The position numbers and the translations under genes were made by a program. This document shows, in pieces, positions 2,356-53,532 of a stretch of 64,000 bases of DNA (position 1 is its first letter; every line of letters starts with the position of its first letter). Below the pieces are notes generated by a model. That model worked only from the letters and a program-made list of their open reading frames with translations. It was not told where the DNA came from and did no database searches. This DNA comes from Planctomycetota bacterium (GTDB lineage: Bacteria > Planctomycetota > UBA1135 > UBA2386). The stretch covers positions 43,153 through 107,152 of the forward strand of contig JAPYTD010000004.1 in assembly GCA_029936315.1 (NCBI GenBank). The letters run 5' to 3'.

Positions 2356-3510
2356 ATGAAGGCCTTCTATGTTTCGGTGCTGTCAGTTTTGGCTGCCGTC
2401 TCGATTCCCGCCCAGCAACCCACGTTGTCTGAGGCGAAGTTCGACGAGTTGCGGGCGCTGCTGACGCCGGATCCGCAGACGATGTGGCGGCGCATTCCGT
2501 GGCGTGTCGAGTTGCTCGAGGCGCAGCGCGAAGCGGCCGCGCAGAACAAGCCGCTGTTCATCTGGGCGATGGATGGGCATCCACTCGGCTGCACTTGAAA
2601 CAACGGCGTGATCGATCGTGCATCGATCTTTGCCGACCAGCGCATGTTCGAGTTGTTGCGCACCAAGTTCATTCCTGTAGCGATCGATCAGGCTTACGAG
2701 CGCCGCCAGAAAGACGCCGAAGGTGAGTTCTATCGAAGTATCGCCTCGCAAGGTCCGCGCAAGAATTTCCAAGGCACGACCCAAGGCTTCTACGTCGCGA
2801 CGCCGGCGGGGGAGTTGCTGCTCTACAACAACAACCGCGATCCGGAGAAGGTGCTGCGCCTTACCAAGAAGGCGTCCGTGACGTTTGCTGCCAGCAAGAG
2901 TGCGAAGCGCGCAACCAAGCCCATCGCTTCTGGCAAGGTCGATGCGCGCTACAACCCCGTGCCGCCCGAAGGCGGTTTGGTGGTGCGGGTGCGCGCAAAG
3001 GTGTTGGGTGGATACGTTGCGACCAGCGACCGTTGGCGCAAGGCGATGCAGACGGCGTTGTCGCGCGACAACCTTTGGATCACGCAGAAGGAACACGCGG
3101 CGCTCGTTGCCGGCGAGCTACCCAAGAAGTTGATGCGACGGCTAACGCGTTTCCACCTCGTCGACAACACGCGCGGGGAGCCGCCGATGTGGCAGGACAA
3201 GGAAGTGCGCAAGATCGCATTCGAGCGTGATGGCAAGCGCATCCGCGGATCCGTTCTGCTCCGCACCGAGGATGGTAAGCGCGGCTACGTTGCGTCGATG
3301 CTCGGCTTCGTCGAGGTCGAGAAGGACGTGGTCACGCGCTTTGACCTGGTCGTCAACGGCGAGTTCTGGGGCGAAGGCCGCTACACGCGCAACGCACCGG
3401 CGGGGCGGTTTCCGTTCGCGGTGTCGCTTACTTTGGCGGACGGCAGTGATGTTGCGGATGCGATCCCGCCGCAGGCGTCACGTGGGTGGGTCGAAGGCTA
3501 CTTTCGCTGA
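2356..3510 (+). CDS. Exported thioredoxin-like selenoprotein candidate (C-T-U motif), 384 aa with TGA read-through
   Basis: ATG 2356 with signal peptide; ...KPLFIWAMDGHPLGCT-TGA(2596-2598)-NNGVIDRAS... continues in frame into track ORF 2608..3510; SECIS-like hairpin follows. Confidence 0.75.
2605..2634 (+). promoter_or_regulatory. Putative bacterial SECIS element
   Basis: GATCGAT(2610-16)/ATCGATC(2622-28) perfect 7-bp stem, loop CGTGC, lower GGC/GCC pairing; loop starts 18 nt after UGA. Confidence 0.65.
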
Positions 3511-3643
3511 GGGGTGCGACGACAGTGGTCGTGGCCTGATTGCATTGACCGAAGGCTTGGGCTCGGTGCAGTCTATTCGTGTTCTGCTGTTGAGGTGAGT
3601 TGCTGTAGCGTGAGCCATTGCTCAAGCCACAAGGCTCTCACGT

Positions 3644-4678
3644 ATGACCAAAGCAGCAGGACTGTCCCTAGGGCGGTTGACAATCGTCTTCGCCGGTTTC
3701 GTGATCATCGTTGCCGGCATGAAGGCGGCCGCGTCGATCGTCGTGCCACTGCTGTGTGCGCTGTTCCTGATGGTGTTGAGCCTGCCGGTCCTGCATTGGC
3801 TGCAACGACGCAAGCTGCCCGATGGCCTGGCGCTGTTGCTCGTGATCGGCGGCATAGTCATGACGGTCGTGCTCGTGCTGCTCGTGCTCGGATCGTCGTT
3901 CGCCGGCTTCCAGGATGATTGCGCTGGCTACGGCGAACGCCTGCAACAGGTCTATGGCGAAGCCAAGGAATGGCTGGGCGGCTACGTGGATGTCACGGAC
4001 AAGCTCGACAGTGCGATCGATCCACAGGTGCTCATGAGCTACGTCGGCAATGCCGTCGGGCAACTCGGCGGGCTGATGAGCAACGCCTTTGTCATCTTGT
4101 TGCTTGTCGCCTTCTTGCTCGCTGAGGCGAACAGCTTCGGCAAGAAGCTCGAGGCAGGATCGAAGGACCCTGCCGCAACCCGAGCGCGGCTGGAGGAGAT
4201 CGGCCGCGGCGTGACCAAGTACTTCTCGATCAAGACCGCCGTGAGCGGGCTGACTGGCGTGCTCGTCGGCATCGTGCTCGCGATTGCCGGTGTCGATTAC
4301 CCCGTGCTCTGGGGGTTCCTCGCGTTCTTGCTCAACTTCGTGCCGAGCATCGGTTCGATTCTGGCGGCCATCCCACCTGTGCTGCTCGCGATTGTGCAAC
4401 CGGAGTTGGGTGCGGGCACCGCCGTCGTCGTTGCGGTCTTCCTGCTCGCGATCAACCTCGTAGTTGGCACCGTGTTGGAGCCCCGCTTCATGGGACGCGG
4501 TCTCGATCTCTCGAGCCTCGTCGTGTTCTTGTCGCTGTTGTTTTGGGGCTGGGTGCTAGGGCCGGTCGGCATGCTGCTGTCGGTGCCATTGACCGCGACG
4601 GTGAAAATCATTCTCGAAGCGTTCGCCGAGGGGCGGCCAATCGCGCGCCTGCTGGGTTCGCACGTCGAACCGGCCTGA
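3644..4678 (+). CDS. AI-2E family transporter
   Basis: Multi-TM protein with LLNFVPSIGS, EPRFMGRGLDLS and GPVGMLLSVPLT motifs. Confidence 0.9.
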   Translation: MTKAAGLSLGRLTIVFAGFVIIVAGMKAAASIVVPLLCALFLMVLSLPVLHWLQRRKLPDGLALLLVIGGIVMTVVLVLLVLGSSFAGFQDDCAGYGERLQQVYGEAKEWLGGYVDVTDKLDSAIDPQVLMSYVGNAVGQLGGLMSNAFVILLLVAFLLAEANSFGKKLEAGSKDPAATRARLEEIGRGVTKYFSIKTAVSGLTGVLVGIVLAIAGVDYPVLWGFLAFLLNFVPSIGSILAAIPPVLLAIVQPELGAGTAVVVAVFLLAINLVVGTVLEPRFMGRGLDLSSLVVFLSLLFWGWVLGPVGMLLSVPLTATVKIILEAFAEGRPIARLLGSHVEPA

Positions 4679-4745
4679 TAAGGGGGGCTGGGCTCTCTCC
4701 CCAAGCCTCATTTGCACGTTCTAGGCCCTGTCTACCGCTCCGACC

Positions 4746-4774
4746 TTGTCGAAATGCTCCGTTCGGGCTATCCT
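4746..4774 (+). promoter_or_regulatory. Possible sigma70-type promoter upstream of the DEAD-box helicase
   Basis: TTGTCG-N17-TATCCT, about 310 nt upstream of the GTG at 5084. Confidence 0.35.
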
Positions 4775-5083
4775 GTTTGCGTCGGCAAGTGCCTGTATGG
4801 CATGGCCGTGCATCGAAACCCTCCATCCGGAACGGATTCCGGTCTCAAGTAGAGGCGACATTAGGTCGATGCCATTGCAGTTGTGCAGAAGCACAACACT
4901 TTGAGAGCTAGAGCCCTAGCGAGCCAGAAATGCGGCGGGTGGCGACCAGGTAGGTCGGCCCGTGCCATCGTGCATTGTTCAGTAAGAACGAGTAGCCGCA
5001 GGTAAGCAGAGTGGGGCACCCAAGATAACAACGAACGCGCAGCGCTTTGCCACTAACGGCGCCGCTGCCAAGAGAACAACTTA

Positions 5084-6310
5084 GTGAGTTTTGAATCCCT
5101 CGGACTGAACAAGTCCATCCTGCAGGGTGTGCGCGACGCCGGCTACGACAAGCCGACCGAGATCCAAGTGCATGCCATCCCCAAGATCCTTGCTGGCACT
5201 GAACTGATTGGCCTCGGCCAAACAGGTAGCGGCAAGACCGCAGCCTTCGGTTTGCCGATGCTGCATAACTTCACCGGTGGCGAACCCGGCCTTCGTGGCC
5301 TGATCATCGTGCCGACGCGCGAACTGTGTGTGCAAGTCGCCGAGAACCTGCGCGGCTATGCAAAGCACGCTGGCCTCAGCGTGTGCACCGCGTTCGGTGG
5401 CATTGACATTGCGATCCAAGAGTCCGCCTTCAAGCGCGGCCTGGATGTGTTGGTCGCTTGCCCCGGTCGATTGATCGATCACCTTGAGCGGCGCAACATC
5501 TCGCTTGAGAAGATCGAGATGGTCGTGCTCGACGAAGCGGACCGCATGCTCGACATGGGCTTCATGCCGCAGATTCGACGCGTGTTCCTTCGAATGCCAG
5601 ATGAGCGGCAGAACCTGCTGTTCTCAGCAACGCTGCCGAAGGAAGTTGAAGGCCTGGTCCACGACTTCCTGCCCAACGCTGAGCACGTGCAGATCGGTTC
5701 GCGCAGCCAATCGGTTAGCACGATTACGCATCGTTTCGCGGCGGTCCAAGTCGGTGACAAGCCCGACGCGCTCGAACGCCTGCTCCGTCGCGAGAGTGGC
5801 AAGGTGCTGGTGTTCTGCAACAAGAAGATCGGTTGCGAGAAGCTTGGCAGCATGCTGAAGCGCCGTGGCATGCCGGCGGATTCGATCCACGGCGACAAGA
5901 GTGCCGAAGCGCGGCACATGTGCCTTGGCGCGTTCTCGCGCGGCAAGACTCGCATCTTGATTGCCACCGACGTTGCCGGTCGCGGCATCGATGTCGACGA
6001 CGTTGCGTTGGTCGTCAACTACGACTTTCCGTTGGTGCTTGAGGACTACGTGCACCGCACCGGTCGCACCGGTCGCGCCGGCAAGACCGGTCGCGCGGTG
6101 TCGTTTGTTGCTCCCTCGGAGAAGCGTCTCTACGAAGCCGTCAAGGCGCACCTCGCCGGCAAGGAAGTGAAGAACGCGCCGGCCGCGCCGGGTCGCGGCT
6201 ACGGCATGCCGAAGGGTCGTGGTGATCGGAAGCCGCGTGGCCGCAGTGATGGTGGGCGACCTGCAGGTGGCAGGGGTCGTGGTCGCGCGACGGCTGGCGC
6301 GCCCTACTAG
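5084..6310 (+). CDS. DEAD/DEAH-box RNA helicase (RhlE-like)
   Basis: Q motif, GQTGSGKT, PTREL, DEAD, SAT, ATDVAGRG, HRTGRTGRAG; R/G-rich tail. Confidence 0.95.
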   Translation: MSFESLGLNKSILQGVRDAGYDKPTEIQVHAIPKILAGTELIGLGQTGSGKTAAFGLPMLHNFTGGEPGLRGLIIVPTRELCVQVAENLRGYAKHAGLSVCTAFGGIDIAIQESAFKRGLDVLVACPGRLIDHLERRNISLEKIEMVVLDEADRMLDMGFMPQIRRVFLRMPDERQNLLFSATLPKEVEGLVHDFLPNAEHVQIGSRSQSVSTITHRFAAVQVGDKPDALERLLRRESGKVLVFCNKKIGCEKLGSMLKRRGMPADSIHGDKSAEARHMCLGAFSRGKTRILIATDVAGRGIDVDDVALVVNYDFPLVLEDYVHRTGRTGRAGKTGRAVSFVAPSEKRLYEAVKAHLAGKEVKNAPAAPGRGYGMPKGRGDRKPRGRSDGGRPAGGRGRGRATAGAPY

Positions 6311-6365
6311 CCCACGATCATCGATCGCACGATTGCGAACGTTCACCGTGGTCTACGAGAACTAG

Positions 6366-6409
6366 CCGAAGAGGTTAGTTCTCGTCCCGGCACCGTATGA
6401 GCACCCTTG
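6366..6409 (-). repeat. Dispersed ~44-bp repeat, copy A
   Basis: Minus strand CAAGGGTGCTCATACGGTGCCGGGACGAGAACTAACCTCTTCGG; aligns by eye with copies at 23814, 29743, 49580 and 63737. Confidence 0.8.
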
Positions 6410-6441
6410 CGCGTCCATGATCGGCGCCATGCAAAGGGGTA

Positions 6442-6754
6442 TTGCAACGGGACTACGGTGCGTCAGGGGACCAGTTGCAGCGCATCGTCGCTTCGTGGCA
6501 AGGTCTTGAGCCGGCGACTGCCGCACAGGCACACCTGACACGCTTTGCCGCTTGCCGCGGACGAGAAGATCGCGCGCGAAGTTGGTGCGCGCAGGGTTTA
6601 CGACTCCTTGCGCCAGGGTGTCGACACGAGCAAGCCGGTCAAGCGCCGCAAGCTGCTGAAGCAGCTTGGGGCTTTTGCCAAGAACACCGAGTACGAAGGC
6701 ACCTATGCCGTCAAACTCGCCCTGATTGAATACAACCGGTTGGGCTTGCGCTGA
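6442..6754 (+). pseudogene. Possible 5'-truncated, frameshifted gene remnant
   Basis: Coding-like LQRDYGASGDQLQRIVASWQ...HLTR in one frame, then LPLAADEKIAREV...EYNRLGLR* in the next frame near 6544; no good start. Confidence 0.35.
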
Positions 6755-7513
6755 CTAGCCGAGGATCGCCTTGGCGGTCGCGGCTGGGTCACTCGCCTGC
6801 ACCAAAGAACGAAACACGTCGTCGAGGTGTTCGTGCGCACCCTTGCCCGCCTGTTCACGCAGCTCGGCTGCAGACCCACACGCGAGCAGCTTGCCCTTGT
6901 CGAGAACGGCGATGCGGTCGGCGGTGTTCTCGACGACGTCGAGCATGTGGCTGCAGTGCAGCACCGCACCGCCGCGCGCGGCGAACTCATGCATCAGCTG
7001 TTTGACGATCAGCGTGGTTGTGACGTCGAGGCCAGAGAGCGGCTCGTCAAACACCAACAGCTTCGGGTCGGTTAGCAGCGCGGCTGAGATCGAAACCTTC
7101 TGCAGCATGCCCTTGCTGAACGCGACCATCGGCTCGTCTTTGCGGTCGAGAATGTCGAAGCCGCGCAGGAACCGTTCGCCGCGGTCTGCGACCACTGCGT
7201 CGTCGAGATCGAACAATCTGCCCTTGAGCAGCAGGAACTCCCACGGCGTCAGGGTCTCGTGCAAGCGGGCGACTTCCGGCAAGTAACCGACCAGGCGGCG
7301 GGCCGACGCGTCCGTCAAGGCATCGGCGCCGTCGATCTGCACGGAGCCCTGGTCCGGTTTGAGCAGGCCGACCAGGCATTTCACGGTGGTCGTCTTGCCA
7401 GCGCCGTTTGGCCCGAGCAGCGCCAGGATTTCGCCCGAGGCGATGCTCAGGTCGAGCCCATCCAGAGCGACGAAATTGCCGTAGGTCTTGCGCAGGTTGG
7501 CGATTGCCAGCAT
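6755..7513 (-). CDS. ABC transporter ATP-binding protein
   Basis: GPNGAGKTT Walker A, FSKGMLQK signature, LVFDEP Walker B, H-loop CSH. Confidence 0.95.
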   Translation of the reverse strand: MLAIANLRKTYGNFVALDGLDLSIASGEILALLGPNGAGKTTTVKCLVGLLKPDQGSVQIDGADALTDASARRLVGYLPEVARLHETLTPWEFLLLKGRLFDLDDAVVADRGERFLRGFDILDRKDEPMVAFSKGMLQKVSISAALLTDPKLLVFDEPLSGLDVTTTLIVKQLMHEFAARGGAVLHCSHMLDVVENTADRIAVLDKGKLLACGSAAELREQAGKGAHEHLDDVFRSLVQASDPAATAKAILG

Positions 7514-7666
7514 GGGGCCATCTTGGCAGTAGGTTGGGCGAACGGCCAGTGTTGTGGTGGCTTCTCGGTGGGTGAGCGGGCTGCGGCAGGGATTTGTCAG
7601 AAGTTGTACTGGCGAACTTCCTTCCTGCTGAACCTGACCGGTTCGGGTATCGTTCGCCGCCCCAAC

Positions 7667-8380
7667 GTGCGTACTTCTTCGCTACTTGTGTCGATTGCCG
7701 TCCACGGAGCCGCGGTAGCAACCGTGGTCGGGTTCGGTGCGTACGCGCTGCAGAGCCAGCACCGGCCGTTGGCGCATCTTGAGATTCGGCACCAGCAGGC
7801 CAGCTCCCTGGCGCCCCAGCGCACGCTGCCAGATCCCGATGTCGTGCCGGAGCAGTTGGTTGAGCACGTCGTTGTGAACGACGTCCGAGTCGATGAGCAG
7901 ACGGATGAGCAGACGGATGAGTCGGCGGATGAGCAGGCGATTGCCTCGGCCACCGTCGATGACCGCATGTTGTCGCCATCCGAGGTGTTGCAGGGTGTCA
8001 CGCTTGAGCGGGTGAAGGTGCCTTCGCCGGTCGTGCCAGCCAAGTCGCACGAGCCGCAGCCGGCCCCGGCGGTCGTGCCGAAGCTCAGCGAACCGCAGGT
8101 GTTCATGCAGGCGCAACGTTCGGACAACGTCGAACCGGTCTACCCGGCGCGTGAGCGTCGTCAGATGCGCGAGGGACTGGTCGTCGTGCGCATTGTGGTT
8201 TCGACGGATGGTTCGGTCGAGCACGCGTCGCTGTTGACGCCGTCTCGCTACAAGGGCTTCAACCAGTCGGCTTTGGCTGCGGCGCGCAAGTGGACGTTCG
8301 CGCCGGCGACTCGAGGTGGGGTCGCGGTCAAGAGCGAGACCGACATCGAAGTCGAGTTTCGCCTGACGGACGATCGCTAG
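7667..8380 (+). CDS. TonB family energy transducer
   Basis: N-terminal TM SIAVHG, Pro/acidic linker, C-terminal PVYP..EG.VVV....G.V..A...AA..W.FAPA domain. GTG 7667 is the likely start. Confidence 0.85.
   Translation: MRTSSLLVSIAVHGAAVATVVGFGAYALQSQHRPLAHLEIRHQQASSLAPQRTLPDPDVVPEQLVEHVVVNDVRVDEQTDEQTDESADEQAIASATVDDRMLSPSEVLQGVTLERVKVPSPVVPAKSHEPQPAPAVVPKLSEPQVFMQAQRSDNVEPVYPARERRQMREGLVVVRIVVSTDGSVEHASLLTPSRYKGFNQSALAAARKWTFAPATRGGVAVKSETDIEVEFRLTDDR
7892..7939 (+). repeat. Four imperfect 12-bp tandem repeats inside the TonB linker (DEQT DEQT DESA DEQA)
   Basis: GATGAGCAGACG x2, GATGAGTCGGCG, GATGAGCAGGCG. Confidence 0.85.
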
Positions 8381-8426
8381 GTTCTCGGGTTAGCCGCCTA
8401 CAGGAACGGCCCTGCTCGAACGGCCG

Positions 8427-9641
8427 CTATTCGAACGGTACATTGAGTTCCGCGAGGATCGCATCGAGTCGTCCATACATGCGTTCCCAGCGCCATTCTT
8501 GCCGGACCCACTTCGCGGCGGCCAGACCATCGCGGCGGGCGACTTCCGGATCGGCAAACCACTTCGCGACGGCTTCGACGGTCGCGGCAACGCCGTCGGC
8601 GACGACCAACGAGTTTTGTGGGACATTACCGAGGCCTTGCGATGCCTGCGGTGAGGCAACCGTCGGCAAGGCCATGCTCATTGCTTCGAGCACTTTGTTT
8701 TGTACGCCGCGAGCGAGTCGTAACGGGGCAATCGCGACCGAAGCCTTGTCGAAGTATGGCGGCGTTGTCTCGACGCGGCCGGTGACGGTGATGCCGTCGA
8801 GCTCGCCGAGTGCTGTGACCGCCGCCGTTGGCTTGCTACCAACGATCAGCAACCGGGCATCCGGAAAGCGCTTGCGCAGCGTTGGCCAGCAGCTCTTGGC
8901 AAACCAGCAAACGCCGTCGATGTTCGGTTCGTAGTCCATCACGCCCGTGAAGATCGCAGTCTGCGGGTGGCGTTCGGCTTCGCTCTGCGACTGAAAGTGC
9001 TCGATGTCGACACCGTTTGGCAACACATCCGGCACGACACCAGGGATCAGCTCCAGGAACAATTTGCGTTCGACTTCACTGACGACGAACGACCGCGAAA
9101 ACGTGCGTGCCACTTCGGCTTCGAACGCGAGCAGTCGCTTGGCTTCGCGGCCGTAGATCCACTTGCCGAGCGGTCCACTGACCGTTGCGTACTGGCGCCA
9201 CTTGTCAGAATCGAGTTCGGCGAACTGCATGACCTTGGCTCCGGCCGCTGGCCGCATTGCGTATTGGGCCATCGAAGACGAGTACACGTAGACAAGATCA
9301 GGCGGAGTCTCGCACCAGCGGGTCACCGCCCGCTGCAATTCCGCGTTCCGGAAGAATGGCAGCGTCAGGGGCTCACCCGTAAGCAGTCCGCGCAAACTGG
9401 CCAACTTGGCGGTGCGGCGCGACAGCCTCGGGGCCACGACCTCGGCGCAGCGTTCGCGCAAGAAGGTGACTGCCTTGGCGTCGCGGTCCTCTTCCTGAAA
9501 GCAACCGATGCAAACTTCGGCACCTCGTGCCAGTAGGTGTTGCAAGAAGTGCCAGGTCGTAATGCGGTCGCCGCGGTCCGGTGGCCATGGCACTCGTTGG
9601 CACAAAAAGACGACTCGGGGTTTGGCTTGAGGGTTTCGCAC
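8427..9641 (-). CDS. GT4 glycosyltransferase (resembles the PEP-CTERM/exosortase-associated sugar transferase type)
   Basis: RVPWPPDRGDRI, ELDSDKWRQYA, FTGVMDYEPN, RGVQNKVLEAM. GTG 9641 is the inferred start. Confidence 0.85.
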   Translation of the reverse strand: MRNPQAKPRVVFLCQRVPWPPDRGDRITTWHFLQHLLARGAEVCIGCFQEEDRDAKAVTFLRERCAEVVAPRLSRRTAKLASLRGLLTGEPLTLPFFRNAELQRAVTRWCETPPDLVYVYSSSMAQYAMRPAAGAKVMQFAELDSDKWRQYATVSGPLGKWIYGREAKRLLAFEAEVARTFSRSFVVSEVERKLFLELIPGVVPDVLPNGVDIEHFQSQSEAERHPQTAIFTGVMDYEPNIDGVCWFAKSCWPTLRKRFPDARLLIVGSKPTAAVTALGELDGITVTGRVETTPPYFDKASVAIAPLRLARGVQNKVLEAMSMALPTVASPQASQGLGNVPQNSLVVADGVAATVEAVAKWFADPEVARRDGLAAAKWVRQEWRWERMYGRLDAILAELNVPFE

Positions 9642-9726
9642 GCGAGGTTGCTGGACGGAAGGTGTTCCCGGTAACAGCGTCAAGGTTGCGACTCGTGGCC
9701 CCCGATACAAGAGGCGGAGCGACTGT

Positions 9727-10599
9727 ATGCCAGACACTACGAGTTCAGCTGCAAACATCCTGACCCTGGGCAACAGCACGATTGACCTGCCGACGATGCC
9801 GGAGGTCTTGATCAAGCTGAATGAAATCATGGCGGATCCCGAAACTTCGGTGGCGGATGTCGCAAAAGTTGTGTCGGCGGACCCGGCGGTTTCGGCCAAC
9901 ATCCTTCGTATCGTCAACTCGGCCTACTACGGCCTGCAAGTGCGCGTTGCGTCGGTCAGCCTCGCCATCTCGGTGATGGGCTTCAACATGACCAAGAAGG
10001 TCGCGTTGAAGGCGGCCGTGTTTTCATCGTTCGGCCAACGTCGCGCGAAGATTCAGCACTTCGATCCGACGTCGTTCTGGAAGCACGCGGTCTACACGGG
10101 CGTGGCTGCTCGCGCGATGTCGCAGAGTTCGAGGCAGTTTGCCGACATGCACCCCGAGGATGCTTACATTGCAGGCCTGCTGCATGATATTGGCAAGATC
10201 ATCATGATGGAGAAGTCGACCCCACAGTATCTGGCGATGCTGCGTAAGTCGGCGCAGTCCGGTCGTTCCGAAGATGAGGTCGAACTGGAAGACTTCGGCT
10301 ACACGCACGCCGACGTCGGTTCCGTTCTGGCTATCAAGTGGTCCTTGCCTGAGGATCTTGCGACCGCCATCCGTTATCACCACGCCCCCGCGCGTGATCC
10401 ATTCCATCGCTCCCTATCGTCACTCATTCACCTCGCCGATCAATTGGCGTGGCGGGCCCAGATGCCATCAACGTTGGGTACGACGATTGCTCCGCTGGAT
10501 CACGAGGTCTACGACCAGATTGGCCTCAGTCCTGAGCAAGTCGAAGAACTGCTGCCGCAGATTCACGACGACTTCGCAGCTTCCGAGTTGCCCTGGTAG
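9727..10599 (+). CDS. HDOD domain-containing protein
   Basis: DLPTMP, DPAVSANILRIVNSAYY, AGLLHDIGK, E...GYTHADVG, AIRYHH. Confidence 0.9.
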   Translation: MPDTTSSAANILTLGNSTIDLPTMPEVLIKLNEIMADPETSVADVAKVVSADPAVSANILRIVNSAYYGLQVRVASVSLAISVMGFNMTKKVALKAAVFSSFGQRRAKIQHFDPTSFWKHAVYTGVAARAMSQSSRQFADMHPEDAYIAGLLHDIGKIIMMEKSTPQYLAMLRKSAQSGRSEDEVELEDFGYTHADVGSVLAIKWSLPEDLATAIRYHHAPARDPFHRSLSSLIHLADQLAWRAQMPSTLGTTIAPLDHEVYDQIGLSPEQVEELLPQIHDDFAASELPW

Positions 10600-10629
10600 T
10601 TCGGTCACCGCTCGAGTGGTGAGGTAGCC

Positions 10630-13714: not shown

Positions 13715-13726
13715 GGCAGGGGGCTA

Positions 13727-14761: not shown

Positions 14762-14938
14762 TTGTTTTTGGTTGTGGACCGCGCGGGCGTTGTGCGTGCG
14801 CTTTGCTCATTACTTGCGCAAGTGCTGCCTGCACGTCGTTGGCGCCAAACGGTTTGCGCAACATCGCCGTATGCCTGGATTGACTCCTAGCTGCGGACCA
14901 GCGCAGCAGCCAATTGGGCCCTGGGTCAGTTTCGGCCT

Positions 14939-38865: not shown

Positions 38866-38920
38866 CCGAAGAGCACTGTTTTCTAAGACCGAGTCTCTTA
38901 GATCGATACTCTTAGATCGA
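38866..38920. repeat. Degenerate copy of the dispersed repeat plus a 12-bp direct repeat duplicating the bcp 3' end
   Basis: Minus strand TAAGAGACTCGGTCTTAGAAAACAGTGCTCTTCGG; CTCTTAGATCGA at 38895 and at 38909. Confidence 0.45.
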
Positions 38921-39349
38921 GGCGAGTACCTCTTGCGGGTGCTCGGCAGGTTTGACGGTGTCGAACACCTTGCGGACTTTGCCGTCGGTGTCGATCACAA
39001 TTGTGATGCGCTTTGCATTGCCTGAGCCATCTGCGCGGATGGCATCGCAGGCGGCGCCGAGTTGCTTGTCGGAGTCGCACAGCAGGGCAAAGGGGAAGTC
39101 GAACTTCTGGCGGAACGCGCGGTTCTCGTCGACGGTGTCGAACGACACACCACAGATCACAGCGTTCTTGGCGTCAAACTCGGGCTTCAAATCACGGAAG
39201 CCCTGACCTTCGAGCGTTCAACCGGGCGTATCGGCTTTGGGGTAGAACCACAACACCAACGTCTTGCCGGCGAAGTCGGCGAGGGTGCGCGTGTTGCCTT
39301 CGTCGTCGAGTACGGAGAAGTCAGGGGCCGGCGATCCGGGTTGCAGCAT
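38912..39349 (-). CDS. bcp: BCP-type peroxiredoxin, selenocysteine at the peroxidatic position
   Basis: FYPKADTPG-TGA(39220-39218)-TLEGQGFRD...GVSFD...FPFALLCD...KRIT; joins two track ORFs in frame. Confidence 0.88.
39176..39207 (-). promoter_or_regulatory. Putative SECIS element of bcp
   Basis: Minus strand GTCA-GGGCTTC-CGTGATTT-GAAGCCC-GAGTT-TGAC: perfect 7-bp stem, loop 21 nt after UGA. Confidence 0.7.
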
Positions 39350-42291: not shown

Positions 42292-42389
42292 GCACGCTTA
42301 GCTGTCAAGCGGGTGCGGTAACGCGCCATCTCGAGCCAAATACTCGGCGCGCAATAGCAGCACTATTCGTTGCTCTTGCCAGACAGCCC

Positions 42390-42417
42390 GTGACGAGGGG
42401 CCGTGCGTTCCTACAAT
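42390..42417 (+). promoter_or_regulatory. Possible promoter for the 1211-aa gene
   Basis: GTGACG-N16-TACAAT. Confidence 0.3.
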
Positions 42418-42441
42418 CCCGGCCCGCATTGAGCGGACCGC

Positions 42442-46077: not shown

Positions 46078-47192
46078 GCGATCGCGATCGCCGCGCCCTG
46101 TTGTGGCTGTGTTGCGCCGGTATCTGCTGGCGGTGGTTCGTTGGGATTCGAGCACCACTGCCGGGAGTCGACGCATGTCGCGACCTCTGGCTTGCCGAGC
46201 AACTGGTAGGCGGCAACTTCACGGCCGTGTTCGATCGAGCCCTCGAACCGCTCTATGCGTTGTTGCTCGCGCCAGCCTTGGCGTTCGGAGCATCGCCGTT
46301 TGCCGCCACCCAAGTGGTCGCCAGCCTGTTGGGCGGCCTCGTCGTCGTGCCAGCAGCATTGGCCGCCGAACGCATGCGTGAAGGCGCAGGCGTCTCAGCA
46401 GCGGCGGTTTCGATGGTTGCGGCGGGGCCGGTTGTGGCCGCTGGTGCGGGAGCCGCGACGGCAATGTTCACGTTGTTGTCCGCGTGTTGCCTTTGGGCGT
46501 TCGCAACCAGGCGCCTGGTCTTGAGTGGGGTGCTGCTGCTGGTCGTTGTCGCGAGCGGTACCGACCAGATCGCTTCGATGCCGCAGGCTACATGGCACGA
46601 GCTGCGCCTCGGGGTTGGGTCTGCCGTGCTATTGATGCCGCTACTGTTGTTGTCCCCGCGGTCGCGCCTATTTGGTCTGCTGGTTGGTGTGCAACTGGTA
46701 CTCGTCGCAATCGCCTGGTTGCTCGATGCGTGGACGAGTTTCTTGCCCTTGTACTCGCCGTTGCTCGCCGTGCTTGTTGGCCTCGGTTTGGCACGGTTGC
46801 CGGTTCGGCTGCGTGATGTGTTGCTCAGCGTCATCGTGGCGATCGAATGCCATGCGGCGTGGACGTTGGGAGAACCCGAGGCTGCCGTCATCGAACGTGT
46901 GTTGCCGCAGTACCTGATTCGTCGTCTGCACGCCGAGGGCGACATCGTGCTCTCGAACCTGCCGCGCGTCCGGTGGTCGGCCGGCCAAAATCCGAGTTCT
47001 GCGACCCATTCCTATGTCGATGCGCTGCGCGATGACAAGGTGGCCAGCATCATCATGACTGCGGGCGAAGCCAAGGATGCTTCGTTGCGCGCCTTGCTGG
47101 CAGCGAAGTTTGAGCGGGCCCCGGTGCCGACGGACATCGCGGAGTTGTTATTGCAGCGCAGCTTGCACGTGTTGCGCAGACGACACCAGTAG
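46074..47192 (+). CDS. Multi-TM membrane protein, possibly GT-C/ArnT-like
   Basis: GTGA overlap with the previous gene; D...DL.LAE.L..G...EPLY.LL early-loop pattern. Confidence 0.55.
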   Translation: MSDRDRRALLWLCCAGICWRWFVGIRAPLPGVDACRDLWLAEQLVGGNFTAVFDRALEPLYALLLAPALAFGASPFAATQVVASLLGGLVVVPAALAAERMREGAGVSAAAVSMVAAGPVVAAGAGAATAMFTLLSACCLWAFATRRLVLSGVLLLVVVASGTDQIASMPQATWHELRLGVGSAVLLMPLLLLSPRSRLFGLLVGVQLVLVAIAWLLDAWTSFLPLYSPLLAVLVGLGLARLPVRLRDVLLSVIVAIECHAAWTLGEPEAAVIERVLPQYLIRRLHAEGDIVLSNLPRVRWSAGQNPSSATHSYVDALRDDKVASIIMTAGEAKDASLRALLAAKFERAPVPTDIAELLLQRSLHVLRRRHQ

Positions 47193-47313
47193 AGGCTTGT
47201 GCGGAGGCGAGACATGGTCGATGCCGGGTGCAGTTGGGGGCGTATCCCCGGCACCCAGATCCCCGTGAACCAGAGCCCCGACCCCAGTCACACACACCCG
47301 CCTTCCTAGGGCG

Positions 47314-48234
47314 CTAGCGTTGGTCACGGCTGACGATGATGACGCCGATCACGATCAGCGCGCCGCCGCCCCACTGGATCGGTTCCAGTTGGTCGCCCTG
47401 AAACGCCCATCCCGCGAATGCGGCGAACAACGGTTGCAGGGCAAACAACAAGGCGAGGTGCGTCGGCGAAATCTTGTGCTGCACCTTCGCCTGTACGCCG
47501 ATTGCGATGCCGGTCGCGAGCGCGCCTAGATAGAAGAAGGACCACAGCAGCGACGCTGTCCAAACGACCGGTCCGCCGTCGACGCTGATGCCGCTGACGA
47601 GCAGTGTGCCAGCGATGGCGATGACGCTGGTGAACGCAAGTTGCCAGAACGTGAACGGTGCGATTGCCAGGCGACTGCCGTAGTGCGAGAGCAGTAGAAT
47701 GTGCGCCGCGAAGCCGATCGCCGAGCCGACCTGTAGCAGGATTCCGCGTATGGTGTTGTGCTGCACGACCTGTGCTTGCAGCGCGTCGGTTGCCGCGGGG
47801 TTTGGGTCGCCACTCAGGCAGAGCACAATGATGCCGGTCAGTCCGAACGCCAGGCCGATCACGGCGAGCTTGCCGATGCGAGCGCCGAAGCAGAAGTGAC
47901 CACCGACGGCGACCAGCAAGACGATCAAGCCGGTGACGAAACCGCCCATCGATGCGGTCGTTTCGCGCACGCCATACATCTGCAGAAAGTACGGCACGGC
48001 CAGGGCCATCCCGGCGAGTAGGCCAGGGCCGAGCGTGCCTCGCCGTTGTTCTCGCGCCGTGCACAGGAAGAACGGCAGCACGCACAGCGCGCCAATGATG
48101 AAGCGTGACGAGACCAGCGCAAACGGCGTCACCGACTCCATCGCGACCTTTGAGACCACGAAACTGCCCGCCCAGATTGCGATCAGGGTCGTCATCAGGG
48201 CGTGCGGAACGAAGGTCTTGCCGGTCGTTGGCAT
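47314..48234 (-). CDS. DMT/EamA family transporter
   Basis: IWAGSFVVSK, SRF.IGAL, two EamA repeats, LQPLFAA..GW. Confidence 0.92.
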   Translation of the reverse strand: MPTTGKTFVPHALMTTLIAIWAGSFVVSKVAMESVTPFALVSSRFIIGALCVLPFFLCTAREQRRGTLGPGLLAGMALAVPYFLQMYGVRETTASMGGFVTGLIVLLVAVGGHFCFGARIGKLAVIGLAFGLTGIIVLCLSGDPNPAATDALQAQVVQHNTIRGILLQVGSAIGFAAHILLLSHYGSRLAIAPFTFWQLAFTSVIAIAGTLLVSGISVDGGPVVWTASLLWSFFYLGALATGIAIGVQAKVQHKISPTHLALLFALQPLFAAFAGWAFQGDQLEPIQWGGGALIVIGVIIVSRDQR

Positions 48235-48335
48235 AGGCGCGAGCACCATAGTGGGGCAGGTGTCTCGGAACACAACTGTCGTGAATGTCGCGGCGACTTC
48301 TGGCTTCCGCGCCGGCAACCCCGTAATCAGCGGCG

Positions 48336-49592
48336 ATGCTCTGGCGCCTCCTCGGACTGCAGGACTCGACGAAAGCAGAACGCTCGGCGACGTTCTGGGT
48401 CGCGGTGATGGCGTTCGCGACCTTGGCCAGCACGTTTGTGTTGCGGCCAATTCGCGGTCAGTTCGGAGTGTCCATGGGTGTTGAAGGCATGCCGGAGCTG
48501 TACAGCCTGACGCTGTTGGCGACGGTCCTGATGGTCGTGCCGTTTTGGAGTTTGGCCAATCGCATGCCGAGCCGGCGGTTCGTGGCCGTTGCCCTACACA
48601 CAGGTGTCGCCGCCTTGCTAGCGGTGGCCCTTGGGCTGTGGTGGGTTGGCGACTACCAATGGCAACAGGATCCGTGGATCGGCAAGTTGTTCTGGGGTGG
48701 CTTCTCGGCGCTCAACGTGGCGTTGCCGGCCTTGGTCTGGATCCACGCCGTCGAACACTTCAGCAAGAACCAGGGCAAACGCCTGTTCGGGTTGCTTTCG
48801 GTTGGCGCCACTCTCGGCGCGATGGTGGGGTCGAAGATCACTTCGATGGCGTCGTCTGAATGGGGTTTGCCCAACTGGACGATGGCGGTCGTTGCGGCGG
48901 CGTTGCTGGGGCTTGCCTACTACGCGTTTCTGAAATCGCGGCGGCCCTGTTCGCAACTCGAGGGTCGCGATACCAGCCAGCAAGTAGCGACCGGTGGCAT
49001 CCTTCAAGGTCTGCGCATTGTCGTGCGCGATCGCCGCGCCATGCAGATCGCGATCTACATGATGCTCGTAGGCTTCGTCGCGACCGCGTTCGAAGCGGGG
49101 CAGACGGAGTTGGTCGGTGCCGAATTGCATCGCGCTTGGGAACAGCAGACGTTCCTCGCGAACGTAGGCGTCTACGGCAATGGCCTCGTGTTGGTGCTGC
49201 AGTTGCTTTGCACGGGTCGCCTGATGACGCGCATGGCGCCGATGGCCCTGTTGTCGTCGTTGCCGGTCGTGTCGATCATCGGCCTCGTGCTATATGCCGT
49301 CGCCCCAACCGCTGGCGTCATCTTTGTCCTGCAAGTCGTGCGCCGCGGCGCCAACTACGCGATCGAGAAACCCGCCCGCGAAGTGCTCTACACGCCGCTC
49401 GATCTCGCGACCAAGCACAAGGTCAAGTTCTTGCTCGACACCTTCGCGCTGCGCCTTGGCGATCTCGCCGGAGCCTTTGCGCAAGTGTGGCTACGCCAAA
49501 TAGGATTGGGCGTCAGCGGCATCGTCACCATCACCATCGCCTTTGCCTTGGTCTGGATCGCAATCGCCTACCTATTAGGCCGAAGAGGTTAG
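48336..49592 (+). CDS. NTP/NDP exchange (Npt/TLC-like) MFS transporter
   Basis: LRPIR, FS..QGKRLFG...GA..G...G, RR..NYA..KPARE.LYTPL....K.K.K..LD...R.GD. Confidence 0.8.
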   Translation: MLWRLLGLQDSTKAERSATFWVAVMAFATLASTFVLRPIRGQFGVSMGVEGMPELYSLTLLATVLMVVPFWSLANRMPSRRFVAVALHTGVAALLAVALGLWWVGDYQWQQDPWIGKLFWGGFSALNVALPALVWIHAVEHFSKNQGKRLFGLLSVGATLGAMVGSKITSMASSEWGLPNWTMAVVAAALLGLAYYAFLKSRRPCSQLEGRDTSQQVATGGILQGLRIVVRDRRAMQIAIYMMLVGFVATAFEAGQTELVGAELHRAWEQQTFLANVGVYGNGLVLVLQLLCTGRLMTRMAPMALLSSLPVVSIIGLVLYAVAPTAGVIFVLQVVRRGANYAIEKPAREVLYTPLDLATKHKVKFLLDTFALRLGDLAGAFAQVWLRQIGLGVSGIVTITIAFALVWIAIAYLLGRRG

Positions 49593-49612
49593 TGCCGTAC
49601 GAGCACTCTTAG
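49580..49612 (-). repeat. Dispersed repeat, copy D (internally deleted)
   Basis: CTAAGAGTGCTCGTACGG-C-ACTAACCTCTTCGG; 18 nt identical to copy E and 14 nt identical to copy A; overlaps both convergent stop codons. Confidence 0.75.
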
Positions 49613-50739
49613 TGGAGTTCGTAGCGGAGCCATCGGCACTCGATGGGGCCGTTGCGGACCGGGAACTTGCGGCTGGTTCGTAGGCCGAGGTAACGCGTTA
49701 GTTCTGGCGCGCCACAGAGTACGTGCGCTTGGGCTCCGTTGCATTGTTGGTGTAGGAAGTTGCCAAGCGATTGCCAGGAGTCGACCAGCGATGGGTCGTC
49801 GGGTTGCAGGCGTTCTCCATATGGCGGGTTGGTGACGACCATCGCTGGCTTGAACGGTGGCACGTAGTCGCGCGTATCGCCGAAGTTGAGTTCGATCTTG
49901 CCTCGTAGGCCGGCGCTCTTGATTGCGATCTTCGAGATCGCGATGGCGCCTTCGTGGTTGTCGTTGCCGGCGAGTCTTGGGCAGTGGTCTTGGCCGGCGG
50001 TGGCGCGCGCTTCGGCTTCATCAAATACAGACTGCCACGCGTTCTGATCGGTGTCCTTCCAGCGTTCGAACGCGAATGCACGACCTAGCCCCGGCGCGCG
50101 ATCCATCGCCAACCACGCCGCCTCGATCAGGAACGTGCTTGAGCCGCACATCGGGTCGACGAGCGGCGACTTCGGATCCCATTCACTGAGTTGGATCAAA
50201 CCGGCCGCCAGCGACTCGTTGAGCGGGCTCTTGTGTTGCACTTCGTGGTAGCCGCGCTTGTGCAGCGGCTCGCCACCGAGTTCGCGATAAAGGATCGCCT
50301 CATCGTTGTGCAGCACCAGCTTGATCGGCAGGTCCGGTCGATCGCGTTCGACGTTGGGGCGAATGCCATCGAAGTGGCGGAACTGGTCGCAGATCGCGTC
50401 CTTGGCGACGAGCACGGGGAAGCGGGTGTCGTTGGCCCAGCTGTCTCGCACCGAACCGTCAATTGCGAGTGTGCCCGTGGCGTCGATGAACAGCGACCAG
50501 TCGACTGTCGATGTCAGGTCGTAGAGCTCTTCGCGGTCGCGCGCTGGTCCGCGTACGAGCTCTTCTTGCACGCGAATGCCGGATCGCAGCCACAGGCACG
50601 CCTTGTAGGCGACGTCCGGTTCACTCGAGAACGCGCACGCCCCGCGCCGGATGTCGACGTTTCGGGCGCCGAGTTCGCGCAGTTCGTAGGCGAGTACCTC
50701 TTCGAGGCCGAGCGTGCAGGCGACGTAGTAGTTGCCCAA
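49609..50739 (-). CDS. THUMP-domain RNA methyltransferase (RlmL N-terminal-like)
   Basis: GLEEVL..EL, LHKRGY, PLNESLAA, DPMCGS.T.LIEAA, VTNPPYGER. Confidence 0.92.
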   Translation of the reverse strand: MGNYYVACTLGLEEVLAYELRELGARNVDIRRGACAFSSEPDVAYKACLWLRSGIRVQEELVRGPARDREELYDLTSTVDWSLFIDATGTLAIDGSVRDSWANDTRFPVLVAKDAICDQFRHFDGIRPNVERDRPDLPIKLVLHNDEAILYRELGGEPLHKRGYHEVQHKSPLNESLAAGLIQLSEWDPKSPLVDPMCGSSTFLIEAAWLAMDRAPGLGRAFAFERWKDTDQNAWQSVFDEAEARATAGQDHCPRLAGNDNHEGAIAISKIAIKSAGLRGKIELNFGDTRDYVPPFKPAMVVTNPPYGERLQPDDPSLVDSWQSLGNFLHQQCNGAQAHVLCGAPELTRYLGLRTSRKFPVRNGPIECRWLRYELH

Positions 50740-50740
50740 C

Positions 50741-52000
50741 TCAGGAGTCCTTTGGCGCCGGCCCGGCAGCCTTGGCGAAGTCGTCGGCGAAGCACGACAG
50801 CGCGCTGATCACCGGCGCGGCCGCCATTTCGATCAGCGAGCAGTCGCCCTTCTTGCGTGAGAACGTGGCGAGCTTGCTCATCTTCGCGTCGTAGCCCGGA
50901 CCCTTGCCAGCCTGCACGGCTTTGAGAATGTGCACGAACTGATTGGTCTCCATGCGGCACGGTGGGCATTTGCCGCACTGTTCCTTCATGAAGAACTCGG
51001 CGATCTCCAAGGTCAATGCCACGACGTCGGTGGTCTCATCGACAATGCGCACGCCGCCACAACCAGGCGAAGTGCCGAGTGGCTGCAGGGTCTCGTACGC
51101 GATCGGCACGTCGAGGTGGGCGCCATCGAGAAACGCCGCCGACATCGCTGGCAAGATTGCGCGAACCGTACGGCCATGCTTGAGTCCGCCACCGCAGCCT
51201 TCGATCAGTTCGCGGTAGGTTGCACCAAACGGCAGTTCGTAGACGCCGGGCTTCTCGACCTGATCGCCGAGTGTAAACAGCAGCGTGCCCTTGCTGTCTT
51301 CTGTTCCGATCGCTGCGAACGCCGCGCCACTGTTGCGCGCGATCCACGCGACGTGCGCCAGGGTCTCGGTGTTGTTGACCGTCGTCGGTTTGCCGAACAG
51401 TCCCGCTTCTCCTGGGAACGGCGGCTTCTTGCGCGGTTTGGCAGGTTCGCCTTCGATCGCGTTCAGTGCCGCGGTCTCTTCGCCGGCGACATAGGTCGTT
51501 GGGCCGCAGTGGATCGCAATCGGAAACGGCAGCAGTCCGGCTTCGTTCGCTTCACCCAGCGCCATCTCGGCGCTGGCACGCGGACCGCGCATATCTTCGA
51601 TCAGGTACAGGTAGCCCTTCGTCGCACCGGTCGCGAGCCCGGCCAGTGCGAGTCCTTCGACGACCGCATGTGGATGGTGTTCGACCAGGTAACGATCCTT
51701 GTTGCTGCCGGGTTCGTGTTCGCCGCCATTGGCCACGATGTACTTCTCGGTCCCCGCCGCATCCGCCGCCAACTGCCACTTCCGGATCGTCGGAAACGCG
51801 GCGCCACCGCGGCCGCGCAGTCCCGATGCGGCAACCTGATCGCGCAGCCACGCGGGGCCCTTTTCCTGGGCAATGGCCAACCCGTCGTAGCCACCGCGGG
51901 CGCGGTAGTCGGCGAGGCCTTCGGGTTCGTCGGAAGAACGGTTGGCAAGCAAGAGGGCGGGCGATGGCACGCAACGGATCCTATGGCCGTCGCCGTCCAT
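50741..52000 (-). CDS. Stand-alone NuoF-like flavoprotein (FMN, [4Fe-4S])
   Basis: SGLRGRGGAAFPT, EHEPGSNKD, YVAGEETA, GLFGKPT.VNN.ET, CGKCPPCR...C. Start at 52000 or 51970. Confidence 0.9.
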   Translation of the reverse strand: MDGDGHRIRCVPSPALLLANRSSDEPEGLADYRARGGYDGLAIAQEKGPAWLRDQVAASGLRGRGGAAFPTIRKWQLAADAAGTEKYIVANGGEHEPGSNKDRYLVEHHPHAVVEGLALAGLATGATKGYLYLIEDMRGPRASAEMALGEANEAGLLPFPIAIHCGPTTYVAGEETAALNAIEGEPAKPRKKPPFPGEAGLFGKPTTVNNTETLAHVAWIARNSGAAFAAIGTEDSKGTLLFTLGDQVEKPGVYELPFGATYRELIEGCGGGLKHGRTVRAILPAMSAAFLDGAHLDVPIAYETLQPLGTSPGCGGVRIVDETTDVVALTLEIAEFFMKEQCGKCPPCRMETNQFVHILKAVQAGKGPGYDAKMSKLATFSRKKGDCSLIEMAAAPVISALSCFADDFAKAAGPAPKDS

Positions 52001-52023
52001 ACGCGAGGTTGGGGCAACCCAGG

Positions 52024-52107
52024 GGCCACATGATCTATGTCGACCAGGAGGCGCATGAGCAGCTGGTTGCCGATCTGCGCACGTGGTTTGACCTGCGGCT
52101 TCGATAG
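52024..52107 (+). pseudogene. C-terminal stump resembling a serine carboxypeptidase (S10) end
   Basis: GHMIYVDQEAHEQLVADLRTWFDLRLR* resembles the GHM-x-Y catalytic His tail. Confidence 0.4.
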
Positions 52108-52118
52108 GGCGCGGCAAT

Positions 52119-52229
52119 CTAGTCGATAGTCAGCGGCTTCTCGCAATGCGGGCAGTGCGTCATCGTTTCCGGCACGCCGGTTGCGCGTTGACTGCGCGCT
52201 TGTTTGCGGGCGCGGCCGAGTTCCTCCAT
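52119..52229 (-). CDS. Small ORF (36 aa) with CPHC motif
   Basis: MEELGRARKQARSQRATGVPETMTHCPHCEKPLTID*; below the track cutoff; could be a stump. Confidence 0.35.
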   Translation of the reverse strand: MEELGRARKQARSQRATGVPETMTHCPHCEKPLTID

Positions 52230-52416
52230 GAACGCGCCGCCTTAGCAGAGCGCAGGGTCACGCCCGCATCCTACGCCGCGGAGCATTGTCATCGGTGTAA
52301 CAGAAACGGGGATCTGTGTTAGTCCGGTTGTCAGCACGCGAGGGCGGGGTCATGCTGTTGGGCCCAACGGCCACTACGTCGGTGCCCGTATGCCATCTTA
52401 TTCAGAGACACCAAAC

Positions 52417-53532
52417 ATGAGAATTGCTCTCGTCCTGGCAGGCTCCTTGTTGCTCGGCTCTGTGGCCGCACAAGAAACTGCTACTCCCAAACCCCAGGAA
52501 CCGGCGAAAGCCAGTGCCGCCGAGTGCATGCAGCAGATCCAAGACCTGCAGCAGAAGGCAATCACCGATTGGCGCGCCGACAGGAAGCAAGCGGCCGAAG
52601 CCGCGAAGGGCCCTGCCACTGGCAAGCCGGTCAAGGCGATGCGCATGCGTCCCGACTTCGGTCCGGTCACGAAGATGGCCACCCGGTTCGCGAAGCAGTT
52701 CGCCGGCAGCGATGATGCCGTGCCGTTCTTGATGATGGTCGTGCAGATGAGCCCTGACAAAACGGCGCAGAAAGCCAGCATCGAGGAGATGCTCAAGTCG
52801 CACATCGACAGCCCCGAGCTCGCGCAGATGGGTGGCATGCTTGAGTACCTGCCGCGCATGATCGACGAGGACTTTGCCAAGTCGACGACGAAGCGCATGC
52901 TCAGCAGCAAGAACGCGGACGTGCGCGGTTGGGCTCTCTACGCCACGCACAAGCCCGCGATCGAGAAGGCGGACCGTGAAGGCGAAGACTACGCTGCCGC
53001 CAAGAAGGCACTGCTCGCCGCATGCGAAGATGTCGAAGACCAGCGTCTCGCCAAGCAGATGCGCGGTGCGATCGATCTACGCGAGAAGTACGGCATCGGT
53101 TGCGTTGCCCCCGACATCGCCGGCATCGACCTCGACGGCGTCGAGTTCAAGCTGTCCGACTACAAGGGCAAGGTCATCTTCTTGGACTTCTGGGGCGATT
53201 GGTGAGGCCCATGCCGGGCCATGTACCCACACGAGCGGTCGCTCGTGGAAGAAATGAAGGACAAGCCATTTGCTCTGATTGGCGTCAACAGTGATCAAAC
53301 GATTGAGCGCGCCAAGAAGGCCATCGCCGACAACAACCTCAACTGGCGCAGCTTCCAGAACAAGGGGAACGACGGTGAGATCTCCAAGGATTGGGCTGTG
53401 CAGGGTTGGCCGACGGTGGTCATCCTCGATCGCGAGATGAAGATCCACTACCGCGGTCACGATGGCGAAGCGGCAACGAAGGTTGCGGAAGCACTCGTCG
53501 CCAAGATGACCGGCGGCCAAGAGAAGAAGTAG
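52417..53532 (+). CDS. Exported TlpA/thioredoxin-like selenoprotein (U-G-P-C)
   Basis: APDI.G.DLDG.EFKLSDYKGKVIFLDFWGDW-TGA(53203-05)-GPCRAMYPHE...IGVNSD...WAVQGWPT; joins two track ORFs in frame. Confidence 0.9.
53228..53248 (+). promoter_or_regulatory. Putative SECIS element of the TlpA-like gene
   Basis: CACGAGC-GGTC-GCTCGTG perfect 7-bp stem, loop 31 nt after UGA; a second hairpin GGCCC/GGGCC at 53206-53220. Confidence 0.65.

Follow-up and report, generated by a model that had tools for sequence, protein, structure and literature searches.

Does a 64-kb stretch of planctomycete DNA hold three genes in which an internal UGA is read as selenocysteine (Sec), and is the hairpin behind each UGA an ordinary bacterial selenocysteine insertion sequence (SECIS) or a variant peculiar to the lineage? 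The stretch, here called the window, is 64 kb of contig C23 (positions 43153-107152; G+C content, 61.9%) of a 4.98-Mb metagenome-assembled genome (MAG) of an uncultured member of the Planctomycetota, with a completeness of 92% and a contamination of 2.5%. The source metagenomes are from hydrothermal vents, cold seeps and seawater. Labels such as C4, C23 and C34 denote contigs of this MAG (G000), and P0019 and the like denote homologue records. We are confident that the window carries three independent selenoprotein genes whose UGA codons are read as Sec by the ordinary bacterial SECIS/SelB route. The mechanism is that of a known bacterial system; what appears to be new is the family of gene 1 and the large, mainly extracytoplasmic selenoproteome of a marine planctomycete.

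The three TGA codons and the hairpins that follow them

Reading TGA as U merges three pairs of open reading frames (ORFs) in the window, with the following features.

Gene 1, 2353..3510, plus strand: predicted exported thioredoxin-fold selenoprotein of 385 codons, Sec at codon 82
Sec-UGA of gene 1, 2596-2598, plus strand: motif WAMDGHPLG-C-T-U-NNGV
SECIS of gene 1, 2604-2635, plus strand: upper stem GATCGAT/ATCGATC at 2610-2616 and 2622-2628, loop CGTGC (RNA, CGUGC) at 2617-2621
Possible lower stem of the gene 1 SECIS, plus strand: 2604-2608 with 2631-2635
Gene 2, 38912..39349, minus strand: predicted cytoplasmic PrxQ/BCP-type peroxiredoxin of 145 amino acids, Sec at residue 44 (T-P-G-U, peroxidatic position)
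Sec-UGA of gene 2, 39220-39218, minus strand: motif FYPKADTPG-U-TLEG
SECIS of gene 2, 39203-39182, minus strand: stem GGGCTTC/GAAGCCC at 39203-39197 and 39188-39182, loop CGTGATTT (RNA, CGUGAUUU)
Gene 3, 52390..53532, plus strand: predicted exported ResA/TlpA-like thioredoxin-fold selenoprotein of 380 amino acids, Sec at residue 272 (W-U-G-P-C)
Sec-UGA of gene 3, 53203-53205, plus strand: motif FWGDW-U-GPCRAM
SECIS of gene 3, 53230-53247, plus strand: stem CACGAGC/GCTCGTG at 53230-53236 and 53241-53247, loop GGTC (RNA, GGUC)

An earlier note, made from these letters alone, had described the in-frame TGAs, the 7-bp stems, the loops CGTGC, CGTGATTT and GGTC and the spacers of 18, 21 and 31 nt between TGA and loop (genes 1, 2 and 3), and our measurements reproduced all of these exactly. 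The stem comprises exactly seven perfect pairs at each of the three sites, and RNAfold recovered all three as the minimum-energy structure, the minimum free energy (MFE) of the 50-nt segments being -15.6, -17.1 and -22.7 kcal/mol for sites 1, 2 and 3. Genome-wide, a comparable hairpin, i.e., one with a perfect stem of at least 7 bp, a loop of 3 to 9 nt, a G in loop positions 1-2 and a distance of 16 to 37 nt, follows only 18 of the 711 true-stop TGAs of long coding ORFs (2.5%), and the chance that all three sites would have such a hairpin is about 1.6e-5. The genome scans described below found no further credible Sec site in the window, and Rfam at gathering thresholds gave no match there.

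In public annotation such genes are called only from the part downstream of the TGA, as would be expected if the TGAs were true stops and the ORF pairs were split genes, pseudogenes or assembly errors. We regard the chance of this as negligible. The TGA of gene 1 stands at the same codon in all 80 species-level genomes compared, most of them Planctomycetota and a few labelled Verrucomicrobia, and those of genes 2 and 3 recur in orthologues of the same genus, with intact frames on both sides. Orthologues of gene 2 with exactly one TGA were found in 13 of 14 same-genus genomes, and several family- and order-level homologues have one TGA as well. For gene 3, the best match in each of the 14 genomes (an orthologue at 57-79% identity) has one TGA, and so, exactly once, do nearly all of about 80 further homologues, paralogues included. 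Across the genus, the orthologues of all three genes are syntenic. In genes 2 and 3 the TGA lies inside Pfam domains; the TGA occupies the place at which the fold has its catalytic Cys.

A reassigned or leaky code, under which UGA would be read as Trp, Cys or Gly, has in its favor one public record of a gene 1 orthologue, P0019, which shows W at this place. We consider it extremely improbable that UGA is read in this way: TGA ends about 36% of the long ORFs of the genome, a SECIS follows each site, a complete Sec machinery is encoded (see below), and the homologues have Cys at the position and never Trp, except for that single record, which is a code-4 gene call. The long coding ORFs of the window (n=43) also end in TGA (17) besides TAG (19) and TAA (7), and recoding is therefore site specific, as the earlier note had supposed.

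The stems also encode conserved residues (e.g., HERSL and DRAS), so that Sec might be inserted at these sites while the 7-bp stems were by-products of the conserved peptide and the true signal lay elsewhere; genes 2 and 3 show no compensatory changes among their genus-level orthologues, which is compatible with this. The synonymous positions speak against it, and we hold a by-product origin to be very improbable. In an alignment of 81 sequences, the core UCGAC-CGUG(C/A)-GUCGA of the gene 1 hairpin is conserved and two of its pairs swap CG and UA by two-sided changes, both at synonymous third positions. None of 500 shuffles matched the observed covariation score or the paired fraction, and shifting the 3' partner by up to three columns lowered the number of paired cells, the two-sided changes and the covariation. 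The gene 2 hairpin is nucleotide invariant across 12 genus-level orthologues save for one loop base; of its codons that have synonymous alternatives and encode invariant amino acids, five of six are identical at the nucleotide level, compared with 8 of 43 in the flanks (Fisher P=0.003). The gene 3 hairpin is identical in 12 orthologues and in four paralogues of the same genome, with six of six such codons identical inside the hairpin and 23 of 54 in the flanks (Fisher P=0.009). Synonymous positions are thus frozen inside the stems and variable outside them, and some 29 further Sec sites of the genome show the same architecture behind peptides that are unrelated. Judged from these alignments, the hairpins are under selection at the RNA level, which appears as covariation in gene 1 and as suppressed synonymous change in genes 2 and 3.

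Selenocysteine machinery and the class of SECIS

The genome encodes a tRNA-Sec (69.7 bits, anticodon TCA; contig C144), SelB (343 bits; C116), SelA (466 bits) and SelD (356 bits), all scoring above curated cut-offs. The earlier note had proposed that these four be located and had held that a genome lacking selB or tRNA-Sec would speak against recoding; all four were found. SelB aligns to TIGR00475 from end to end (positions 1-578 of 581). The selA and selD genes are adjacent on the same strand (C26:27594-29952), and SelD is itself a selenoprotein with an in-frame TGA in SSSG-U-AAK. Neither a sel gene nor any tRNA lies within the window, from which the earlier note had already reported selABCD to be missing; the sel genes and tRNA-Sec are located on other contigs.

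In the published model of the bacterial SECIS (bSECIS), a loop of 3 to 9 nt closes a stem of 4 to 16 bp at 16 to 37 nt from the UGA, with an MFE of -7.5 kcal/mol or lower (PMC13188914), and the first two loop nucleotides include at least one G, after which G or U comes in most cases (PMC13188914; model of Zhang and Gladyshev). All three window hairpins, with 7-bp stems and loops of 5, 8 and 4 nt (CGUGC, CGUGAUUU and GGUC), lie within every sequence and structure term of this model. Of the 32 candidate Sec sites examined throughout the genome, 18 (56%) have a model-conforming perfect stem of at least 7 bp and 27 have one of at least 5 bp; once G-U pairs are allowed, 29 (91%) conform, compared with 2.5% at true stops. 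This rate is ordinary, since BSepDB lists a canonical SECIS for 87.4% of its entries.

The earlier note had raised the possibility of a lineage-specific SECIS, i.e., a variant recognized differently, for instance via a CGUG loop. Ten of the approximately 35 loops in the genome do start with CGUG, and nearly all of the 81 aligned gene 1 sequences retain the CGUG(C/A) loop. Nonetheless, the second loop base of CGUGN is a G and the third a U, as in the published consensus, which all three sites fit; the same genome mixes in GGUC loops (10 sites) and (A)GUU loops (7 sites); and the stem, loop and spacing ranges fall inside those of the canonical model. The full-length match of SelB to TIGR00475 points the same way, as does the finding that E. 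coli-type SelB/SECIS rules predict the sites. The suggestion of a lineage-specific element is accordingly not borne out, and we consider such a variant very unlikely. The window hairpins resemble those of the E. coli fdhF type of SelB-dependent UGA decoding in lying within the coding sequence immediately downstream of the UGA, and they differ only in primary sequence and in the genes that host them. GGUC is the apical loop of E. coli fdhF as well.

By the SECIS/SelB route that we favor, the bSECIS hairpin in the coding sequence just past the UGA, with G-U or G-G opening its apical loop, would be bound by SelB-GTP-Sec-tRNA(Sec), and SelB would bring Sec to the UGA in competition with release factor 2 (RF2). 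Sec would occupy the active-site position of a thioredoxin fold in all three proteins. The product of gene 2 would then be a PrxQ/BCP peroxiredoxin of the cytoplasm in which Sec is the peroxidatic residue. Gene 3 would encode a ResA/TlpA-like thiol-disulfide oxidoreductase (UxxC) for export, and gene 1 a thioredoxin-like protein, likewise exported, that combines a C-x-U motif with a beta-rich C-terminal domain. The host would be an aerobically respiring marine planctomycete with a selenoproteome of about 35 genes, mostly extracytoplasmic. The conserved TGAs, the Cys homologues, the Sec machinery and, for genes 2 and 3, the Pfam domains across the TGA bear out the proposal of the earlier note that the three TGAs are sites of Sec recoding at redox motifs.

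Several points weigh against this reading. SelB binding and the actual incorporation of selenium at the three sites are what we infer. The z-scores of single-sequence folding are modest (-1.6, -1.9 and -2.95 for sites 1, 2 and 3), and within the genus no variation is seen in the hairpins of genes 2 and 3, so that their conservation comes without compensatory change. The calls of signal peptides were made by eye and with a crude script, not with a trained predictor, and the contamination of the MAG means that a few of the approximately 35 Sec genes could stem from another organism; for the three window genes, the synteny noted above speaks against this.

The three proteins

Standard gene calling splits or truncates all three genes. 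The earlier note had expected at least two exported Sec enzymes, and N-terminal signal peptides are indeed predicted for genes 1 and 3; gene 2 has none. The export of the products of genes 1 and 3 and the enzymatic roles of all three proteins are predicted.

Gene 1 matched no Pfam or NCBIfam family at E≤0.01. It has more than 1,500 homologues, nearly all of them called only downstream of the TGA; among the best 120, all but one are fragments of 266 to 308 amino acids that start just past it. In public data the family consists of “hypothetical proteins,” over 1,500 in number, that lack their N-termini, and its catalytic half is therefore invisible to annotation. The sole “full-length” record of an orthologue, P0019 (406 amino acids), has W at the Sec position and evidently derives from a code-4 (TGA=Trp) gene call on a planctomycete contig. 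An N-terminal signal peptide is encoded at all 80 loci, and distant representatives (P0131, P0133, P0155, P0158 and P0217) have C-T-C in place of C-T-U, with Cys as the partner of Sec. The ordinary stop of gene 1 is also a TGA (3508-3510), so that one mRNA contains two kinds of UGA, the one for Sec followed by a SECIS and the one for termination lacking it.

An AlphaFold (AF2) model of gene 1, calculated from 38 read-through sequences, has a mean predicted local distance difference test score (pLDDT) of 90 and a predicted template modeling score (pTM) of 0.88. In this model, a thioredoxin-like fold spans residues ~27-185, C-T-U falling between its first strand and its first helix. Among PDB entries, the best match was to the Thioredox_DsbH domain of 7tkv (Foldseek probability, 1.0; E value, 3.5e-4; 139 columns), followed by AGR2; the beta-rich C-terminal domain had no significant match in the PDB. 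Gene 1 resembles the Thioredox_DsbH/DUF255-type domain of 7tkv (Brucella Bab1_2064) and AGR2 in its N-terminal fold and in the place of the redox motif, where strand 1 ends and helix 1 starts. It differs in having 16% identity and no profile match, C-x-U instead of CxxC and the additional beta-rich C-terminal domain. Gene 1 apparently represents an uncatalogued family of exported C-x-U thioredoxin-fold proteins. In some distant relatives (P0152, P0158, P0193 and P0226) the whole gene 1 module makes up the C-terminal portion of membrane Ser/Thr protein kinases, a portion that is presumably extracytoplasmic; some of these fusions retain the redox motif (C-T-C in P0158), and in others it is degenerate or lost. 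The fusions hint at a sensing or ligand-binding role of the fold.

Gene 2 matches Pfam AhpC-TSA (PF00578) with an E value of 1.2e-31 over residues 4-127, across the TGA, and its PKADTPG-U fits the peroxidatic pattern P-x-x-x-T-x-x-C of BCP/PrxQ. Its scores fall below the NCBIfam equivalog cut-offs (NF006960, 102.5 bits versus 140; NF053650, 97.4 bits versus 260), and from its sequence it appears to belong to BCP/PrxQ at the level of the family, not of the equivalog. Homologues free of the TGA, with Cys in its place, exist, including a paralogue in the same genome (C34:15231-15656).

Gene 3 has a signal-peptide-like N-terminus (MRIALVLAGSLLLGSVAAQE), an N-terminal domain of about 230 amino acids with no family assigned, and matches to Pfam AhpC-TSA, Redoxin and Thioredoxin_8 on residues 236-362, across the TGA. 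It scores below the NCBIfam cut-offs for ResA (69.5 bits versus 170), TlpA (49 versus 230) and WAxxUGC_long (35 versus 300). The last of these, NF041054 (ResA-like WAxxUGC motif-containing (seleno)protein), shares with gene 3 the ResA-like thioredoxin fold, the W before Sec and Sec as the first residue of a CxxC-type motif; we rejected membership in view of the score of 35 bits, the motif WGDW-U-GPC and the different architecture. Gene 3 is one of five paralogues in the genome (on C23, C71, C107, C11 and C42), all of which have a GGUC hairpin. Directly after the site 3 UGA lies a second, GC-rich hairpin of 5 bp, GGCCC-AUGCC-GGGCC (53206-53220), which persists in orthologues and varies there in the loop alone. 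It was rejected as a signal, being missing from the C42 paralogue, and is probably incidental to the G-P-C-R-A codons.

Sec-peroxiredoxins (TxxU) and UxxC redoxins have been on record since 2005 (PMC1088965). Gene 2 is like the Sec-peroxiredoxin (Prx, TxxU) of the Sargasso Sea in having T-P-G-U in an AhpC/TSA domain, and gene 3 is like the “Prx-like” and thiol-disulfide isomerase-like UxxC families from the same source in having U-G-P-C in a redoxin/AhpC-TSA domain; both are likewise marine and have a bSECIS (PMC1088965). Genes 2 and 3 differ from the Sargasso Sea families in being placed together in one genome, and gene 3 adds the signal peptide, the 230-amino-acid N-terminal domain and the five paralogues per genome. 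This genome provides an organismal home for the thioredoxin-fold selenoprotein families that dominate marine metagenomes.

The selenoproteome, gene linkage and stop codons

As the hairpin motif consists of a sequence-free stem plus two or three informative loop bases, it holds too little information for a covariance-model search of 10 Mb, and an explicit scan of pattern, frame and codon score was therefore used. Four scans were run and agree: codon-usage log-odds computed to either side of each in-frame TGA; a paralogue search for U aligned to C or U, with all-against-all blastp of 655 TGA-spanning peptides with coding potential; a hairpin-first scan; and a hairpin tally with true-stop controls. 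Together they yielded about 35 candidate Sec genes plus selD in the 4.98 Mb, and include the genome-wide search for TGA aligned to Cys that the earlier note had recommended. When the hairpin filter was combined with a coding-frame filter, 25 of the 27 hits were credible Sec genes, and standard bSECIS rules suffice for finding such sites.

The candidates comprise six ResA-/redoxin-like UxxC proteins, further thioredoxin-like UxxC proteins including a DsbD-like membrane protein, three peroxiredoxins, three deiodinase-like, two SelW-like, two AhpD-like and three HMA-like proteins, two FG-GAP proteins with a U-C motif, one AhpC-TSA_2 protein and several without a family. Signal-peptide-like N-termini were seen by eye in about 26 of the 35, i.e., some three quarters; our script under-called them, at 18 of 35. 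For the two least obvious candidates, C180+3510 and C45+100657, nearly all homologues down to 24% identity have at least one TGA, the one exception being a partial match. Five Sec genes with a signal peptide and no Pfam family around the Sec (C4:45276, C10:699, C180:3510, C45:100657 and C72:81528) have the motifs VPGMW-U-PGKQ (two paralogues), GFA-U-SALQ, YI-U-ICMDH (with only an N-terminal DsbD_N match) and ELC-U-TNAR. Among six other loci of note (C137:52975, C35:23039, C118:15601, C160:34096, C8:60184 and C44:709) are the DsbD-like membrane protein, with Sec in a C-terminal thioredoxin domain (FN-U-GSC), three small HMA-like proteins with U in or near the metal-binding CxxC position and two FG-GAP repeat proteins with a U-C dipeptide.

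Bacteria with at least six selenoprotein genes have been called selenoprotein rich (PMC5029168). The lineages named as such are the Deltaproteobacteria (Thermodesulfobacteriota), Clostridia and Synergistetes (Synergistota), mostly anaerobes, with maxima of 57 to 63 genes (PMC5029168, PMC13188914 and PMC13326102). With about 35 Sec genes plus selD, the present genome is far over the threshold of six and in the tier above 30, which upholds the description of the organism as selenoprotein rich in the earlier note; given those maxima, it therefore belongs to the upper tier and sets no record. Unlike the rich lineages, which are mostly anaerobes with catabolic selenoenzymes (FDH, Grd and Hdr), it belongs to an oxidase-bearing marine planctomycete with mainly exported thioredoxin-fold Sec proteins: a haem-copper oxidase is encoded, and no Sec-formate dehydrogenase was found in the genome. 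A literature search found no paper on the size of a planctomycete selenoproteome.

Our tentative view, to which we give somewhat less than even weight, is that this deep-sea genus of Planctomycetota has a selenoproteome of at least 35 genes, about three quarters of them exported, made up of secreted thioredoxin-fold, HMA-like, FG-GAP and DsbD-like proteins and not of anaerobic catabolic enzymes, with several families absent from Pfam and NCBIfam. The last would include, on searches of these two collections, gene 1 (C-T-U) and the proteins with C-x7-U-P-G-K, GFA-U-SALQ and YI-U-ICMDH. If this is true, these planctomycetes are a selenoprotein-rich lineage that the reviews examined do not name, and the genome points to a selenium-based extracytoplasmic redox network. 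A large selenoproteome, lying mostly outside the cytoplasm, can occur in an oxidase-bearing, non-sulfate-reducing bacterium.

The three window genes are surrounded by unrelated housekeeping genes, i.e., those for an FAD oxidase, an AI-2E transporter, DinB, a WbsX glycosyltransferase, NuoF, RlmL and an S46 peptidase. Genes 2 and 3 are 15 to 21 kb apart in other genomes of the genus, and their spacing is a matter of synteny, not of an operon. Clustering of Sec genes was ruled out: among 36 Sec genes there are 4 pairs within 12 kb, compared with about 3 expected, and 7 within 25 kb, compared with about 6.3 expected. With 0.46 Sec genes expected per 64 kb, the probability of three or more is about 0.012 per window, which amounts to about 0.9 such windows per genome.

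Stop usage in this genome is a separate observation. Long coding ORFs end in TAG in about 50% of cases, in TGA in about 36% and in TAA in about 14%, so that TAG is the most frequent stop and TGA is second in spite of a G+C content of 62%. This runs counter to the general rule, as given in two studies (PMC10471768 and PMC9348620), that TGA exceeds TAG and rises with GC. It is speculation that the TAG bias is linked to the heavy use of UGA for Sec. In loci from 80 other planctomycetes, TAG is frequent (34%) but does not lead at high GC.

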